A stretch of DNA of 64,000 nucleotides from Octopus vulgaris (Eukaryota): the NCBI GenBank assembly GCA_951406725.2, contig OX597820.1, forward strand, positions 11,594,001 to 11,658,000, written 5' to 3'. The position numbers and the translations under genes were made by a program. Positions 3,724-63,760 of this stretch are shown here, in pieces; position 1 is the first letter of the stretch; each line of letters begins with the position of its first letter. The notes beneath the pieces are model-generated. The model made no database searches. It worked only from the letters and a program-made list of their open reading frames with translations, and was not told where the DNA came from.

Positions 3724-3758
<35 letters not shown>

Positions 3759-3764
3759 ATTTAA

Positions 3765-4322
3765 TAAATAAAATACATGCATATATGTACGTACCTACAT
3801 CTACATGTATATATACATGCATATATAAATATATATACGTGAGTACAGGACACCACAAATAGACTCAACGAGAAACGAAAACGTAAAAACAAACATGGAA
3901 ACGAACCTTTTTTTAAAAAACGAAAAAACAGAGTACAAGACAAACAACACAAGGAAAATTCCCCTTCATCAGCTGTCCCTAGTACGACTCCATGCGTGTT
4001 TCGAAGGTGAGGACAGAACACGACTCGTCGAACTAACCCTTCCTGCGAAAGAATTAAATAAAATTTCTTTGCAGAGGGGTAAAAACAAGGAAAGAAAAAA
4101 ATGTGACAAAAACAGGACGTAAAAACAATACAAATAAAATTACAGAATAAAATACAAAATAAAAATACAATTACAAAAAAATACAGTACAAGAAATTTTC
4201 CTTGTGTTGTTTGTCTTGTACTCTGTTTTTTCGTTTTTAAAAAAAAGGTCCGTTTCCATGTTTATTTTTACGTTTTCGTTTCTCGTTGAGTTCTACGTCT
4301 ATTTGTGGTGTCCTGTACTCAC

Positions 4323-4381
<59 letters not shown>

Positions 4382-4455
4382 TGTATATATACATGTAGAT
4401 CTAGGTACGTACATATATGTATGTATGTATGCATATATTTTATTTATTAAATTAT
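3765..4455 (-). mobile_element. Penelope-like non-autonomous element (family X) with inverted partial copy
   Basis: 3765-3960 and 4192-4450 are inverted copies; a non-inverted copy of the same element lies at 46945-47435; carries a hammerhead-like motif. Confidence 0.7.
3961..4079 (-). ncRNA. Candidate rearranged (non-circularly permuted) hammerhead ribozyme, family X copy 1
   Basis: Minus: CCCCT-[hairpin]-GAAGG-TAGTTCGAC..CGTG-TT-CTGTCC..CCTTC-GAAA-CACG..GTCGTACTA-g-GGACAG-CTGATGA-AGGGG; core nucleotides canonical. Confidence 0.75.
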
Positions 4456-4504
4456 TGTATGACTGAGCGCCCTCGCGTCGTTTCGTTTCGTTTCCTCCAA
4501 GTAA

Positions 4505-4567
<63 letters not shown>

Positions 4568-4935: not shown

Positions 4936-5278
4936 GTCCTTGTTACACATACTTATCACGCCATCTTTTCTCTATGTAATCCGTATGTAACGGAATATAT
5001 TTTAATTGGATTTTGTTCGCTTCTGGCTTTTTTTCTTTCTTTCTTTTTCTTTTCTTCCTTTTCTTGTCAAAGAGAAATTGATTGCATGATTGAATACTTT
5101 GATTATTATATTAAATCGTTCATTGAAATTATTCATGTCATATATTTTATGACCCCACTACAATCCCCAACTAACATTTCAGTGGTTTAGCTTCTTCTTT
5201 TTTTTCATATATGGAAGCAATTTCAGTGAAGACAGAAGTGCAAAAGAAAGTGAAAATAAATACAAACAATACAAACAA

Positions 5279-5690
5279 GGCGTAGGAGTGGCTGTGTGGT
5301 AAGTAGCTTGCTAACCATCCACATGGTTCCGGGTTCAGTCCCACTGCGTGGCATCTTGGGCAAGTGTCTTCTGCTATAGCCCCGGGCCGACCAATGCCTT
5401 GTGAGTGGATTTGGTAGACGGAAACTGAAAGAAGCCTGTCGTATATGTATATATATATATGTATGTGTGTGTGTTTGTTTGTGTGTCTGTGTTTGTCCCC
5501 CTAGCATTGCTTGACAACCGATGCTGGTGTTTTTACGTCCCCGTCACTTAGCGGTTCGGCAAAAGAGACCGATAGAATAAGTACTGGGCTTACAAAGAAT
5601 AAGTCCTGGGGTCGATTTGCTCGATTAAAGGCGGTGCTCCAGCATGGCTGCAGTCAAATGACTGAAACAAGTAAAAGAGTAAAAGAGTAA
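5279..5690 (+). mobile_element. SINE family A, full length
   Basis: Colinear with 890-1330. Confidence 0.9.
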
Positions 5691-38770: not shown

Positions 38771-38816
38771 TCTGTGCTGATGAAGGGAAATAACTCAGAA
38801 ACCACAGGTACACAGA
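38771..38816 (+). ncRNA. Minimal type-I hammerhead motif (same family as 63716-63760)
   Basis: TCTGTG-CTGATGA-a-GGG aaataa CTC-a-GAAA-CC aca GG-TA-CACAGA. Confidence 0.75.
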
Positions 38817-42964: not shown

Positions 42965-43145
42965 TTGAAAATATCTTAAGAATGAGAACCTAGGTTCGAA
43001 ATTTCGCAAAGACACCTGATGAAGGCTGGAAGGTATATCAGCCGAAATGTTGTGTTAACAACAAACAAGATGTGGACAAATATCCGTCAAACGTAAATAA
43101 TGTAAATAATGTACATAATTCCTCATCTCTTAAATATAGAACTGT
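42615..43145 (+). mobile_element. tRNA-headed element with inverted 5' duplication and a hammerhead in the body
   Basis: Minus head 42672-42740 (TGGCGTAGTGG, GAGTTCGATTCC); plus head with deletion 42747-42795; (AAT)n(GAT)n(AAC)n; hammerhead at 43011-43056. Confidence 0.65.
43011..43056 (+). ncRNA. Minimal type-I hammerhead motif
   Basis: GACAC-CTGATGA-a-GGCTG gaaggtatat CAGCC-GAAA-TG-TT-GTGTT. Confidence 0.7.
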
Positions 43146-45840: not shown

Positions 45841-45889
<49 letters not shown>

Positions 45890-45987
45890 CAAAATGGGAC
45901 AAGAACGCAAAACATCCAGACAGGTGATACAAAAAAGGGACAACAAAACATACACATAAATAATACAAAGATAAAAGAAGGGCGGGT

Positions 45988-46131
45988 CATTCGGGGTTTT
46001 CTTTCCTCAGTCGAGTTCCAGATTATCTTCGCAATTTTGGCTGGTTATACTCGAGATTGCTCCACTCTGGCCAGCCCCAAGGAAAAAACTAAGCTAAGAG
46101 CATTAGACTCCTTGGAAAAAAGCAGCGAATG
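45988..46131 (-). ncRNA. Candidate rearranged hammerhead, family Z (G12 mutated at a CpG)
   Basis: Minus: CATTCG..TTTTTT-CCAAGGA..TCCTTGG-GGCTGG-CCAGA..GCAA-TC-TCGAGT..CCAGCC-AAAA-TTGC..TCTGG-a-ACTCGA-CTGAGGA-AAGAAA..CGAATG. Confidence 0.7.
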
Positions 46132-46574
46132 TATACATAAACAAAGACGGGAAAAAAAGGGACAATGTTACACAAATACAATAAAAATAATAACAGGACA
46201 TAACAACAGGTGTCTTTCGACTAAGGACGAATTAAATTAAGATGGCGTATGTGGAAATGAAGCATTATGGCAGGGCTACGTATGTATATATGCATATACA
46301 AGTATATGGTGGTGCTCCAGCATGACCGCAGGCGCATACCTGAAACGAATAAAAAGAAAGGTAGACGGAAATTGCAAGAAGCTCTTGCAATGTGTGTGTG
46401 TGTGTGTGTGTGTGTTTGTGTAACTGTCTCCTCATCATCGCTTGACAACCGATGTTGGTGTGCATACGTCCACGCAACTTGCGGTTCGGCAAAAGAGCAC
46501 GACAGAATAAGTACTAGGCTTACAAAGAATAAGTCCTGGAGTCGATTAAAGAATAAAAGAATATATATATATAT

Positions 46575-46944: not shown

Positions 46945-47435
46945 GATAAATAAAATATATGCATACATACATACATATATGTACGTACCTACATCTACAT
47001 GTATATATACATGCATATATAAATATATATACGTGAGTACAGGACGCCACAAATAGACGTAGAACTCAACGAGAAACGAAAACGTAAAAACAAACAGGGA
47101 AACGAACTTTTTTTAACAACGAAAAAAAAACAGAGTACAAAACAAACTACACAAGGAAAATTCCCCTTCATCAGCTGTCCCTAGTTCAACTCCATGCGTG
47201 TTTCGAAGGTGAGGACAGAACACGACTCGTCGAACTAATCCTTCCTGCGAAAGAATTAAATAAAATTCCTTTGCAGAGGGGTAAAAACAAGGAAAGAAAA
47301 AAAATGTGACAAAAACAGGACGTAAAAACAATACAAATAAAAAAAACAAATACAAAATAAAAATACAAATACAAAAAAATACAGTACAAGAAGGAATAAA
47401 AACAGGACAGGAAAACAATGAGGGCCTTTAAGCAT
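46945..47435 (-). mobile_element. Penelope-like non-autonomous element family X, second copy
   Basis: High identity to 3765-4190. Confidence 0.7.
47163..47281 (-). ncRNA. Candidate rearranged hammerhead, family X copy 2
   Basis: As 3961-4079; helix TAGTTCGAC/GTTGAACTA fully paired with one GU. Confidence 0.75.
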
Positions 47436-49675: not shown

Positions 49676-50284
49676 GTATATGTATATAAATATATATGTA
49701 TATATAGAGAGAGAGGGAGAAAGAGAAAGACAGACAAAGACAGAGACAGACAGACAGACAGAGACAGACAGACAGACATATATTCCTAATTATCAGGCAA
49801 TCAGGCATTTCTTTCAATTCCTCATCGCCATCATCGATGTTATACGTACAGCGCTTCTTGTTAAATAGTCATCGTCTCGGCTTTTCCATGTGATCTCTGA
49901 GAGCAAAAAACCAGCAGCAGCAGCAGCGGTCGCAGCAGCAGCAGCAGCAGCAGCAGCAGTCACAGCAGCTGCAATTCTGTTCCTAGCAGCAACAATGCCA
50001 GCAGCAGCACCAGCAGCAGCAACTGAAGCAGCAACAATGCTGTCGATGAGAACAATAGCGGCGGCAACAATAATTTTCTTTTATCTAACATAAAAGGCCG
50101 ATCCTACAAAGAAAGAGGATTTTTAGCTAATTACGTCAAATGTAACGTATTACTGGTACCTATTTTAACGATCGCCCCCCCCCCCCCGTGGAGATTTGAA
50201 CCTGAAGCGGCCAGGCGTGAAATTTAATGTTACCCTGCTAAACACTTTCGTTTCTTTTGTCATTATGTAATAGTATAATGTAAG

Positions 50285-50887
50285 ACAGCGATCTGGCTGA
50301 AACGTTAGCGCGCCTGACGAAATGTTTAGTGGTATTTCGTCTGCCGCTACGTTCTGAGTTCAATTTCCGCCGAGGTCGACTTTGCTTTGTCTTTCATCCT
50401 TTCGGGGTCGATTAAATAAGTACCAGTTACGCACTGGTGTCGATATAATCGACTTAATCCGTTTGTCTGTCCTTGTTTGTCCCCTCTGTGTTTAGCCCCT
50501 TGTAGGTAGTAAAGAAATAGGTATTTCGTCTGCTGTTACGTTCTGAGTTCAAATTCCGCCGAGGTCGACTTTGCCTGTCATCCTTTCGGGGTCGATAAAT
50601 TAAGTACCAGTTACGCACTGGTGTCGATATAATCGACTTAATCCGTTTGTCTGTCCTTGTTTGTCCCCTCTGTGTTTAGCCCCTTGTAGGTAGTAAAGAA
50701 ATAGGTATTTCGTCTGCTGTTACGTTCTGAGTTCAAATTCCGCCGAGGTCGACTTTGCCTGTCATCCTTTCGGGGTCGATAAATTAAGTACCAGTTACGC
50801 ACTGGGGTCAATATAATCGACTTAATCCGTTTGTCTGTCCTTGTTTGTCCCCTCTATGTTTAGCCCCTTGTGGGTAGTAAAGAAATA
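50285..50887 (+). mobile_element. SINE family B tandem array, head plus 3 units
   Basis: Units start GGTATTTCGTCTG at 50331, 50520 and 50705. Confidence 0.9.
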
Positions 50888-55381: not shown

Positions 55382-56059
55382 TTTTTTAAAAAATAAAATT
55401 GGGAGTTTTAGCTAAATCGACTGCATGCGCTAAACATTGCCGATGCCAGGACAAAATTTATCTCCCAAAACCCTGCCATAACATGCAAACACAATATACT
55501 ATGAAGTATACTAAATTTCTTCTTTTTTTTTTTTATAAGTCAGTACCACGCAACTGGTACTTAATTTATCGATCCTGAAAGGGTGAAAGGCAAAATCGAC
55601 CTCGGCGGAATTTGAACCTAGAACGTAAAGATAGACGAAAATGGGATTTATTTATTGACAGCAAGCTACATCCATGCATAGATCAGAATTGGGCCCTTAG
55701 ACCTATGTGGTCTCCACACCCGGACAACTGCCCAATGTGGCCCAGCCTTGAGACGATACTGAATTTAGCGTGTCTGCATATGTATATATGTATTTATATA
55801 CATATGTTAAAGTAAGGCGGTATATAATGGTCTCTATCTTAAGCACAAGTCCATCAACTTTGAAGGGAGAGTGATTAATTGATATCATCAACACCAGTTC
55901 CGGATGGATACCGTGTTTTATCAACACCGAAAAAAGTTCTGTGTTAGAAACCCCCAACGAAATTTGAACTCAGAACATAAACAGCAGGAACGAATGCTGC
56001 AAAGCTTTTTTTTTTTTTGTACTGGTAATGTGAACCTTCTATTATTTACACTGGAAAGA

Positions 56060-57078
56060 AGGCGGCAAGCTGGCAGAACCGTTAGCATTCCGGACAAAAT
56101 GCTTATCGGCATTTCGTCTCTCTTTATGTTCTGAGTTCAAATTCCACCGAGGTCGATTTTGCCTTTCATCCTTTCGGGGTCGATTAAATAAGTACCAGTT
56201 ACGCACTGGGGTCGATATAATCGACTTAATCCGTTTGTCTGTCCTTGTTTGTCCCCTCTGTGTTTAGCCCCTTGTGGGTAGTAAAGGAATAGGTATTTCG
56301 TCTGCCATTATGTTCTGAGTTCAAATTTCGCCTAAGTCGACTTTTTTCATCCTTTCGGGGTCGATGAAAGACCAGTCAAGTGAAGGGAAGTCGATGTAGT
56401 CGAATTCTTCCTGCCCTCAAAAAATTCCAGCCCGGTGCCAAAATTTGAAATCCTTGTTTCCATTGGAAAGTAAATTAAGGTGTTCCGTCTTATTGTTTCA
56501 AATTTTGGCACAAGGCCAGCAATTTTGGGAAATGGGGGTAAGTCGAGAACTGGCCTTATTTCATTACCCCTAGTGCTCAACTGGTGCTTATTTTATCGAC
56601 ACCGAAAGGCAAAGTCGACCTCAGCGGCATTTGAAATCAAAACGTAAAGGCAGACGAAATACCTATTTCTTTACTACCCACAAGGGGCTAAACACAGAGA
56701 GGACAAACAGGGACTGACAAACGGATTACGTCGATTATATCGACTCTAGTGCATAACTGGTACTTATTTAATCGACCCCGAAAGGATGAAAGGCAAAGTC
56801 GACCTCAGCGGAATTTGAACTCAGAACGTAGCGGCAGACGAAATACCTATTTTTTTACTACCCACAAGGGGCTAAACACAGAGAGGACAAACAAGGACAG
56901 ACAAAGGGATTAAGTCGATTATATCGACCCCAGTGGGTAACTGGTACTTATTTAATCGACCCCGAAAGGATGAAAGGCAAAGTCGACCTCGGCAGAATTT
57001 GAACTCAGAACGTATCGGCAGAGGAAATACTACTAAGCATTTCACCCGGCGTGCTAACGTTTCTGCCACCTCACCACC
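56060..57078. mobile_element. Two SINE B arrays tail-to-tail (plus 56060-56450, minus 56490-57078)
   Basis: Consensus match; junctions at about 56290, 56657 and 56840. Confidence 0.85.
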
Positions 57079-57699
57079 TCGTGCTCTGTCATATTAATTC
57101 ATTCCTAATGAGAAACATTCATTAATCATATGTGGGTATAATGTGTGTGTGTGTGTGTGTGTGTGAGTGAGTGTGTGTGTGTGTTCAAGGAATAGGAATA
57201 CCTCTTATATAATGTTGAAAGATGTCAGAACTGTATGGGAACTATGTCAAAATTTGCAATTCCCAACAAAAACGAGTGCTTCACACCATCCACACATTGA
57301 CATCAAATAACCCAATTATTTCAGAGCTAAACAATAAACTAGTTATTTGTTGTTTCTGGTGAGACCTCCGAATCAATTCATGATTTAAATAGACCATATA
57401 TATTTGTGCGTGTGTGCGCGTGTGTGTGTGTGCGCATGTGTGTGTGTTGTTCGAATAAATCAAGTTATACAGGGGTGAGCAAAAGTAGCTATACAGTTGC
57501 TTAATAAGAGAAGAATGATCTTTTCGTTTCTCTATTTCTGTTTTAAACCTAAGAGGTTCATAAGTCGACTAAGGGATCTGCGAGAGATGCCTAGTTCACT
57601 GGAAGCCCTCTTTTTTATTATTCATTATTTCTGGGGAGTCTGAGTGGACGCTTGGGTCACAAACGTTTCATTTTCTTCATTGGCAACACTGACCATTGA

Positions 57700-58659: not shown

Positions 58660-58661
<2 letters not shown>

Positions 58662-59060
58662 CTCTTTTACTTGTTTCAGTCATTTGACTGCAGCCATGCT
58701 GGAGCACCGCCTTTAGTCGAGCAAATCGACCCCGGGACTTATTCTTTGTAAGCCCAGTACTTATTCTATCGGTCTCTTTTGCCAAACCGCTAAGTGACGG
58801 GGACGTAAACACACCAGCATCGGTTGTCAAGCAATGCTAGGGGGACAAACACAGACACACAAACATATACACACACACTTATATATATATACATATATAC
58901 GACAGGCTTCTTTCAGTTTCCGTCTACCAAATCCACTCACAAGGCATTGGTCGGCCCGGGGCTATAGCAGAAGACACTTGCCCAAGATGCTACGCAGTGG
59001 GACTGAACCCGGAACCATGTGGTTGGTTAGCAAGCTACTTACCACACTGCCACTCCTGCG

Positions 59061-59063
<3 letters not shown>
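58660..59063 (-). mobile_element. SINE family A, full length
   Basis: Reverse complement of 5279-5690, nearly identical. Confidence 0.9.
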
Positions 59064-63420: not shown

Positions 63421-63645
63421 GAAATTAGAAAATTATTATTTTTAAATCTCACAACGAGAGATATTCAGCAACAGTACTTTGGAGTAAAGATTGTTTGCCA
63501 ATATAACATGGCAGCCTGGTTTAGGACGAATGTTGCTGTAATTTAGCCCCAGGAGATATCGTCTCCACCTGGTTTTACAACACGATCTTTGTCCTTATAT
63601 TTTCGAACAAGGAAATCTAGCACCCCCACTCAGCTCAAAACAATA

Positions 63646-63688
63646 TCTGTGTATCGCGATTTCCGGGTTATTTCCCTTCATCAGCACA
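63646..63688 (-). ncRNA. Minimal type-I hammerhead motif
   Basis: Minus: TGTG-CTGATGA-a-GGG aaataa CCC-g-GAAA-TCGCGA-TA-CACA. Confidence 0.75.
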
Positions 63689-63715
63689 ATTTCCCTTCAT
63701 CAGTCGAACAATTAT

Positions 63716-63760
63716 TCTGTGCTGATGAAGGGAAATAACCCAGAAATCGCGATACACAGA
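63716..63760 (+). ncRNA. Minimal type-I hammerhead motif
   Basis: TCTGTG-CTGATGA-a-GGG aaataa CCC-a-GAAA-TCGCGA-TA-CACAGA; palindromic stem III ATCGCGAT. Confidence 0.8.

Follow-up and report, generated by a model that had tools for sequence, protein, structure and literature searches.

The window analysed here, a 64,000-nt stretch of the Octopus vulgaris genome, carries on its minus strand at 45988-46131 a rearranged hammerhead fold within a decayed copy of a Penelope-like repeat, family Z, and our analysis confirms this feature. Two ribozymes of a second family, X, lie elsewhere in the window. The features, including the strands of each helix, are as follows.

45846..45884, no strand assigned: (TA)n run, the target microsatellite at the 3' end of the Z copy
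45885..46279, minus strand: family Z copy, 5'-truncated, unit positions 361-755, 88% identical to the copy at L058
46126..46131, minus strand: 5' strand of the P5 outer helix, pairing with 45988-45993 (motif check and 68-copy comparison)
46116..46121, minus strand: 5' strand of the P5 inner helix, pairing with 45998-46003 (motif check and 30-copy comparison)
46077..46115, minus strand: P6 hairpin, closing stem of 7-8 bp, abutting P5 and P2 with zero unpaired bases between
46071..46076, minus strand: 5' strand of stem II (P2), displaced, upstream of the cleavage site
46063..46070, minus strand: 5' strand of P4, counterpart of the type-SGC 'I' helix, 8 bp in most copies and 5 bp in the window copy
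46049..46060, minus strand: block S, with a stem III strand, the AUC triplet and a stem I strand; predicted cut between 46055 and 46054
46031..46044, minus strand: block G, with the 3' strand of stem II, GAAA (AAAA in the window copy) and a stem III strand; 46038 is the G12 position
46018..46025, minus strand: 3' strand of P4 (motif check and 68-copy comparison)
46004..46016, minus strand: stem I strand and the CUGAGGA core, first half of block C (68-copy comparison)
45988..46003, minus strand: 3' strands of P5, beginning directly after A9
47163..47281, minus strand: family X ribozyme with an intact core, the same layout and different helix sequences, inside an X copy at 46946-47429
3961..4079, minus strand: second family X ribozyme, inside an X copy at 3756-4195 that abuts an inverted piece of the X 3' part at 4194-4509

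Along the minus strand of 45988-46131 the motifs come in the order P5, P6 hairpin, P2 5' strand, P4, P3 with the AUC triplet, P1, P2 3' strand, AAAA, P3, P4, P1, CUGAGGA and P5, and all 15 motifs listed by an earlier, sequence-only reading of this DNA are present in the order it gave. That reading had also argued that the bases after CUGAGGA cannot pair with CCAGCC and that the partner of stem II must come from upstream. Both points are borne out: the bases 3' of CUGAGGA in the window copy form no pairs with CCAGCC, either directly or with an extra base allowed, and the duplex energy of the post-core strand is +1.1 kcal/mol versus -10.1 kcal/mol for the upstream partner. When the upstream 61 bases were shuffled, a 6-bp P2 with a gap-free P6 (at least 4 bp) and P5 (at least 4 bp) arose in 114 of 200,000 trials. 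A descriptor of the core layout, comprising P1-P4 with the upstream P2, matched three times in the window, nowhere in 400 kb of unselected genome and nowhere in each of five dinucleotide shuffles of those 400 kb. The Rfam hammerhead families (types I, II and III) gave no match at gathering score in the whole window, the two intact X copies included. Plain folding z-scores against shuffles were not significant for the window Z copy (-0.65), an X copy (-1.64) or a copy of the Naiad family N (-0.25), as expected for pseudoknots and decayed sequence, and they are therefore not used as support; a less decayed Z copy (L008) scored -3.5, and its minimum-energy fold contains the P5/P6/P2 junction. With two core errors allowed, only families Z and X were recovered in the window, and the third family that the sequence-only reading had counted was not recovered; an extra match to a relaxed descriptor at 354-531, which sits in another repeat, was rejected as a member of such a family.

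The window copy has A at the G12 position, which the sequence-only reading took for methylation decay at a CpG, predicting that other genomic copies would read GAAA. A genome search for Z returned 4,649 first-look candidates, a figure that is not a copy number. Among 68 distinct copies the core reads GAAA in 55 and AAAA in nine, and transitions affect 14% of CpG sites versus 5.4% of other G/C sites, in agreement with both parts of that prediction. Position 46038 itself carries G in 23, A in six and T in one of 30 other copies. The same 30 copies correct two helix details of the reading: all have C at 46118, so that the inner P5 is a fully Watson-Crick TTTCTT/AAGAAA, and all have T at 46065, which makes P4 8 bp long in most copies, as against the 5 bp of the window copy. 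Elsewhere in the core of the 68 copies, the cleavage triplet is ATC in 56 and conforms to NUH in 64, and CTGAGGA or CTGAAGA (CUGAnGA) is present in 57, with the core and every P1-P3 pair intact together in only 11. The majority of family Z thus has CUGAnGA, GAAA, an NUH triplet and the A15.1-U16.1 pair. G12 is the general base of the hammerhead, and with its change at 46038 the window copy is therefore probably inactive.

Covariation inside the 68 Z copies is sparse, with no significant covariation at any P2 pair and one strong P1 pair (G-C in 41, A-U in 16) that probably reflects one event in a subfamily, at CpG sites. Covariation across diverged relatives is extensive. An alignment of Z with such relatives (11 Z-type rows) has 88.6% of cells paired, compared with 30-46% in slid controls, and 17 of 44 pairs are changed on both sides, a count reached in none of 500 shuffles, although these shuffles ignore relatedness and related rows can exceed them without structure, so that they do not give probabilities. 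The upstream P2 shows changes on both sides at five of six pairs; three rows (L075, L103 and L104) were picked after their P2 changes had been seen, and four of the 11 rows come from an unselected sample, two of which give changes at three P2 pairs. Six X-type rows are 90.9% paired, with both-side changes at 19 of 35 pairs, including three of five in P2 and two of four in P6. For P4 the corresponding counts are two of eight pairs (Z-type) and five of ten (X-type). Within families P5 covaries less than any other helix, at two of six (Z-type) and one of five (X-type) pairs; its support comes mainly from comparison between families, and in family N it has three Watson-Crick pairs only. Stems I, II and III thus surround the core and covary, and the conserved core together with these helices supports the rearranged hammerhead architecture that had been proposed.

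The P5/P6/P2 junction, which the sequence-only reading also considered real, is gap-free in Z, X, the diverged X' and N, with different sequences in each. A script recovered it in seven of eight copies; for the eighth (L146) it chose a spurious P5/P6, and substitutions are present there. Direct pairing between the post-core strand and the strand before GAAA is absent in all eight copies examined (Z, X, X' and N).

The known relatives of this fold are the type-SGC and type-CSG hammerheads, and its host is Penelope-like, most likely of Naiad type; the sequence-only reading had named neither the relatives nor the host. In the portions of their paper covered here, Eckert et al. (2023, PMC10085705) treat the hammerhead as three blocks, S, G and C, which are assumed to be uninterruptible and allow six orders; SGC and CSG forms cleave in vitro at 0.004-0.19 per min and are described from metatranscriptomes and metagenomes only, the two CSG sequences being from metagenomes, and insertions at A9/10.1 are put at no more than 1-2 nt. 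Like type SGC (HRIMA-1) and CSG as presented there, the octopus fold runs site - GAAA - CUGAnGA with all core nucleotides, has a link of 2-4 nt from stem I to stem II, and carries P4 as the 'I' helix that joins the distal ends of both stems. It thus shows the type-SGC order with a short linker and the distal I/II helix, and lacks the uninterrupted block C: unlike the published forms, its block C is split, with the stem II 5' strand upstream and P5/P6 bridging the gap. The order is accordingly the stem II half of C, S, G and the CUGAnGA half of C. This split-core fold can be described as SGC/CSG circularly permuted, with the opening inside block C and the closure made by P5. It also differs from the environmental SGC and CSG examples in that paper by occurring in many copies of an animal genome.

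Naiads, a group of Penelope-like elements, are described by Craig et al. (2021, PMC8557442, as far as covered here) as lacking canonical hammerheads, some of them having HHR 'core' or 'half core' words. We inspected their consensus file (File S5, 54 entries) by eye rather than by script, through the displayed CUGAnGA matches and four whole parts, and within that coverage found the full split-core fold in nine of the 54 published entries, from five phyla. By eye, the junction is gap-free in Naiad_Amil, Aacu and Anas (near-identical to one another), Plae and EuTe, and also in Obim and Ovul, where P5 has 3 bp; Naiad-3_Chem and Naiad-2_Movir have the fold with single unpaired bases at the junction. 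Naiad_Bfor and one cephalopod entry fit only in part and were left out of the nine. Six entries in the nematode part of the file have, by eye, a plain type CSG with the I helix. No split-core fold was seen by eye in Naiad_Ppla, Naiad_Dcar, Naiad-1_Chem or Naiad-2_Chem, or in the bivalve entries by word searches, which miss words split across line ends. Several arthropod-region entries (File S5 parts 16-18) have CUGAnGA followed by a helix pairing upstream of stem I and no clear stem II, and are possibly further variants. These are the same elements and the same CUGAnGA words to which Craig et al. attach their 'HHR_core' and 'HHR_half_core' labels (half_core for Naiad_Ovul, core for Naiad-3_Chem and Naiad-2_Movir). 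No fold is given in the portions of that work covered here, and we propose complete permuted folds, extending to the unlabelled Acropora, Plae, EuTe and Obim entries.

An ordinary type-SGC ribozyme would take stem II from the bases after CUGAnGA, through a bulge or a dimer, and would leave the upstream match, P5 and P6 as flanking or inhibitory sequence. With one extra base, the post-core strand of X and X' could form four weak pairs, two of them G-U, in an uninterrupted block C; Penelope-type hammerheads often leave a base unpaired at this point and function as dimers (Cervera and de la Pena 2014, PMC4209133, in part); and a spider-region Naiad entry, judged by eye, resembles SGC with a 3-nt insertion. 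Against these observations, Z forms no such pairs and its energies favour the upstream partner, the upstream P2 covaries in both Z-type and X-type rows, and in coral, acanthocephalan and clam-shrimp Naiads, inspected by eye in File S5, the post-core strand pairs with the P5 partner that abuts P6. An ordinary SGC form is on this evidence highly improbable, and we retain the split-core fold.

The Z unit is approximately 755-760 nt long with the ribozyme fold near its 3' end, and has no recognisable coding frame, the longest Met-started frames in two full units being 113 and 62 aa. Its copies form partial tandems and adjacent inverted, 5'-truncated pieces and target (TA)n microsatellites, the arrangement described for Penelope-like elements (PMC8557442, in the portions covered), which places Z among them as a non-autonomous member. 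Family X is an approximately 800-nt unit built like Z, with two copies in the window and 3,451 candidates in the genome; the similarity that Z and X share is AT-rich only. No autonomous partner of either was found in the 1.5-kb flanks of the loci compared, and a guessed RT pattern gave no match. Four sequencing runs, guessed to be RNA, have contigs that span the Z unit, though ends, strand and expression are not readable from contigs. Near a tandem junction at L058:1382-1420 and L052:2005-2020 there is a splice-donor-like GTAAGT followed by a pyrimidine-rich tract, which suggests the 5' intron known from Penelope elements; a matching splice joint is absent among those listed for contigs of four sequencing runs. 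An unselected stretch (L158:4524-6393) holds three diverged Z-type ribozymes at ~860-nt spacing, a tandem array of a Z subfamily, and older Z- or X-related subfamilies with other stem II sequences lie at L162:2010-2160, L170:5782-5930, L164:6244-6385, L130:1219-1352 and L040:400-538. The genome probably contains further families of this kind.

The link from Z to Naiads runs through RNA architecture. A motif from Naiad_Ovul/Obim has 726 matches in the octopus genome versus none in the control, and at one locus (L197) the fold is preceded, ~1.1 kb upstream, by an RT remnant (PF00078, E 1.3e-5, which falls short of the curated cut-off). Broken helicase frames stand beside a Naiad remnant at L198:517-2154, and we take them to be PIF1-like and Helitron-like. 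The Naiad ORF (N-terminal GIY-YIG, CxC, DKA and RT) is absent from Z, so the clade of this non-autonomous unit cannot be set by protein, and neither Z nor X has sequence similarity to seven Naiad RT loci (seven of 15 motif matches), the RNA architecture being all that they share. From that architecture and the target preference we consider Z and X most likely Naiad-dependent, with the sequence link missing as just described. The fold could be a genuine ribozyme in a Z that does not depend on Naiads: Z would then be a retrozyme- or SINE-like repeat that gained the fold independently or by recombination and is mobilised by another Penelope-like clade such as Neptune. Besides the missing sequence link, (TA)n targeting and partial tandems are common to several Penelope-like clades, and cephalopod Naiads are described as old remnants (both PMC8557442, in part). 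Against such a host, Naiads are the only protein-coding elements, among those inspected, to show the split-core fold, and the Hydra and Chlamys hammerheads tabulated in File S2 of Craig et al. (PMC8557442, in part) are mostly canonical. A host other than Naiads is therefore unlikely in our view, and the Naiad-dependent reading is preferred.

If templates are sometimes cut, an excess of 5' ends is expected at +1 or shortly after it. Among (TA)n-joined Z 5' ends, reverse-strand counts are 100 in the interval at the site, 55 upstream and 18 downstream, or 160, 94 and 33 after normalisation for anchor conservation, with the reservation that detection drops with distance from the anchor and that RT stalling on structure is possible. 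Counted by eye, the start falls within +1 to +17 at 26 of the 27 Z loci listed (exactly at +1 in four) and within +1 to +15 at 12 of 14 X loci, the other two being one ambiguous and one at -8; an incidental copy in L200 begins at +1, within a 2-nt overlap. TATAA microhomology marks the join in 11 of the 27 Z ends, a single-base peak in the upstream control (six of 39 loci) is as high as that at +1 (four of 27), and a far/near test carries little weight (p 0.03 for Z alone, 0.02-0.05 when X is included). The idea of the cut site as an absolute 5' barrier was discarded, since partial copies begin upstream of it at -17, -175, -10 and -33 (L091, L087, L127 and L132). The enrichment just downstream of the predicted cut is thus only suggestive as a trace of cutting in vivo.

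The fold might instead be real and selected with negligible or no cleavage, serving Naiad-type elements as a hammerhead-derived signal for RT recognition or RNA stabilisation. Consistent with such a role, 24 of 29 Z copies chosen by their 3' part read through the cut site, and the catalytic strand is broken where, in the portions of Eckert et al. covered, more than 1-2 nt is said never to occur (PMC10085705). A binding-only role does not predict that CUGAnGA, GAAA, the A15.1-U16.1 pair and an NUH triplet persist across families with unrelated helix sequences; the triplets are AUC, GUU, GUC, GUA, AUA and UUC, with G never at the cut. Nor does the enrichment of 5' ends at +1 to +17 favour it. 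Such a non-cleaving signal is quite unlikely, less so than the ordinary SGC form and more so than a host outside Naiads.

Covarying helices and a conserved core are shown, as are the structure of the repeat and the recurrence of the fold downstream of a Naiad RT. On this basis we think it likely, from sequence comparison, that the family Z source RNA cleaves as a split-core hammerhead with non-circularly permuted (SGC/CSG) connectivity. The break in this hammerhead would lie at a new site, between A9 of CUGAnGA and stem II position 10.1, and P5 and P6 would bridge it in a four-way junction that also takes in stem II and the core; P5 may stack on P6 as one helix crossing the strand, with stem II staying on the core. 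The host would be a short Penelope-like element that is non-autonomous and most likely depends on Naiad proteins for its mobilisation. Its source RNA would be cut after AUC, bringing read-through transcripts of tandem copies down to the length of one unit. Four helices (P2, P3, P4 and P5) link the two cleavage products, so the product ends would be clamped, favouring religation or circular templates in line with the model of Cervera and de la Pena (PMC4209133, as covered here); religation or circles would account for read-through of the site in most copies and for tandems longer than one unit. Partial tandem duplication may be the route among CSG, SGC and split forms. With somewhat less assurance we favour a broader proposal, in which the 3' ends of Naiads hold several non-circularly permuted hammerhead forms: CSG in the nematode entries, an SGC-like one in the spider-region entry, and the split core in entries from cnidarians, an acanthocephalan and a crustacean as well as in octopus. 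On this proposal the split core would be an active topology beyond the six orders, its junction in the catalytic strand would clamp the products for circularisation, and tandem duplication would be the route between these forms.

Within the sections covered of PMC4209133, canonical or minimal type I hammerheads in Penelope-like pseudo-LTRs likewise sit near the 3' end of the unit, share the proposed role in precursor cutting and circular templates, and tolerate one added nucleotide where stem II begins on its 5' side. The split-core order differs from theirs in being non-circular and in placing two helices, not one base, at A9/10.1, and its full stem III means that no dimer is needed. Non-LTR retrozymes (Li et al. 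2026, 10.64898/2026.07.22.740005, in part) resemble Z in being short, non-coding, hammerhead-bearing and Penelope-like-derived; unlike them, Z is mostly dispersed and 5'-truncated rather than arranged in tandem arrays, and a word search of the portion of that text covered found no permuted ribozyme, octopus or cephalopod. Perreault et al. describe only small core insertions. A literature search conducted mostly at the level of listings, and confined to main-text material for Eckert et al. and Li et al., found no split-core form and no permuted hammerheads in Naiads, and the literature searched held no tested precedent for a helix insertion at A9/10.1. If the proposal is right, non-circularly permuted hammerheads, so far seen in environmental data only, would gain a known host and job, and the failure of descriptor searches to find hammerheads in Naiads, which dominate many invertebrate genomes, would be explained. 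The block formed by CUGAnGA and stem II would be interruptible, against the working assumption, so that current searches would miss a whole class; an insertion point for helices tolerated in the core would be of interest to ribozyme engineers; and the role of ribozymes in Penelope-like transposition becomes testable with short RNAs.

The window also holds hammerhead-like motifs of other kinds. At 43011-43075 (plus strand) lies a hammerhead-like motif of canonical type I in which CUGAUGA is followed by an additional base and whose stem II is nearly identical in sequence to the displaced stem II of Z. No protein-coding exon is evident in the window, its frames of at least 150 aa being repeats or low-complexity sequence, and many copies of two or more abundant SINE-like repeats, as well as long microsatellites, occur throughout (examples at 5278-5681, 58660-59063, 50282-50887 and 56059-57079). 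A minimal type I hammerhead-like family with a short palindromic stem III occurs at 38772-38815 and 63717-63760 (plus strand) and at 63645-63690 (minus strand), and includes a head-to-head inverted pair, as expected for canonical Penelope-like elements.
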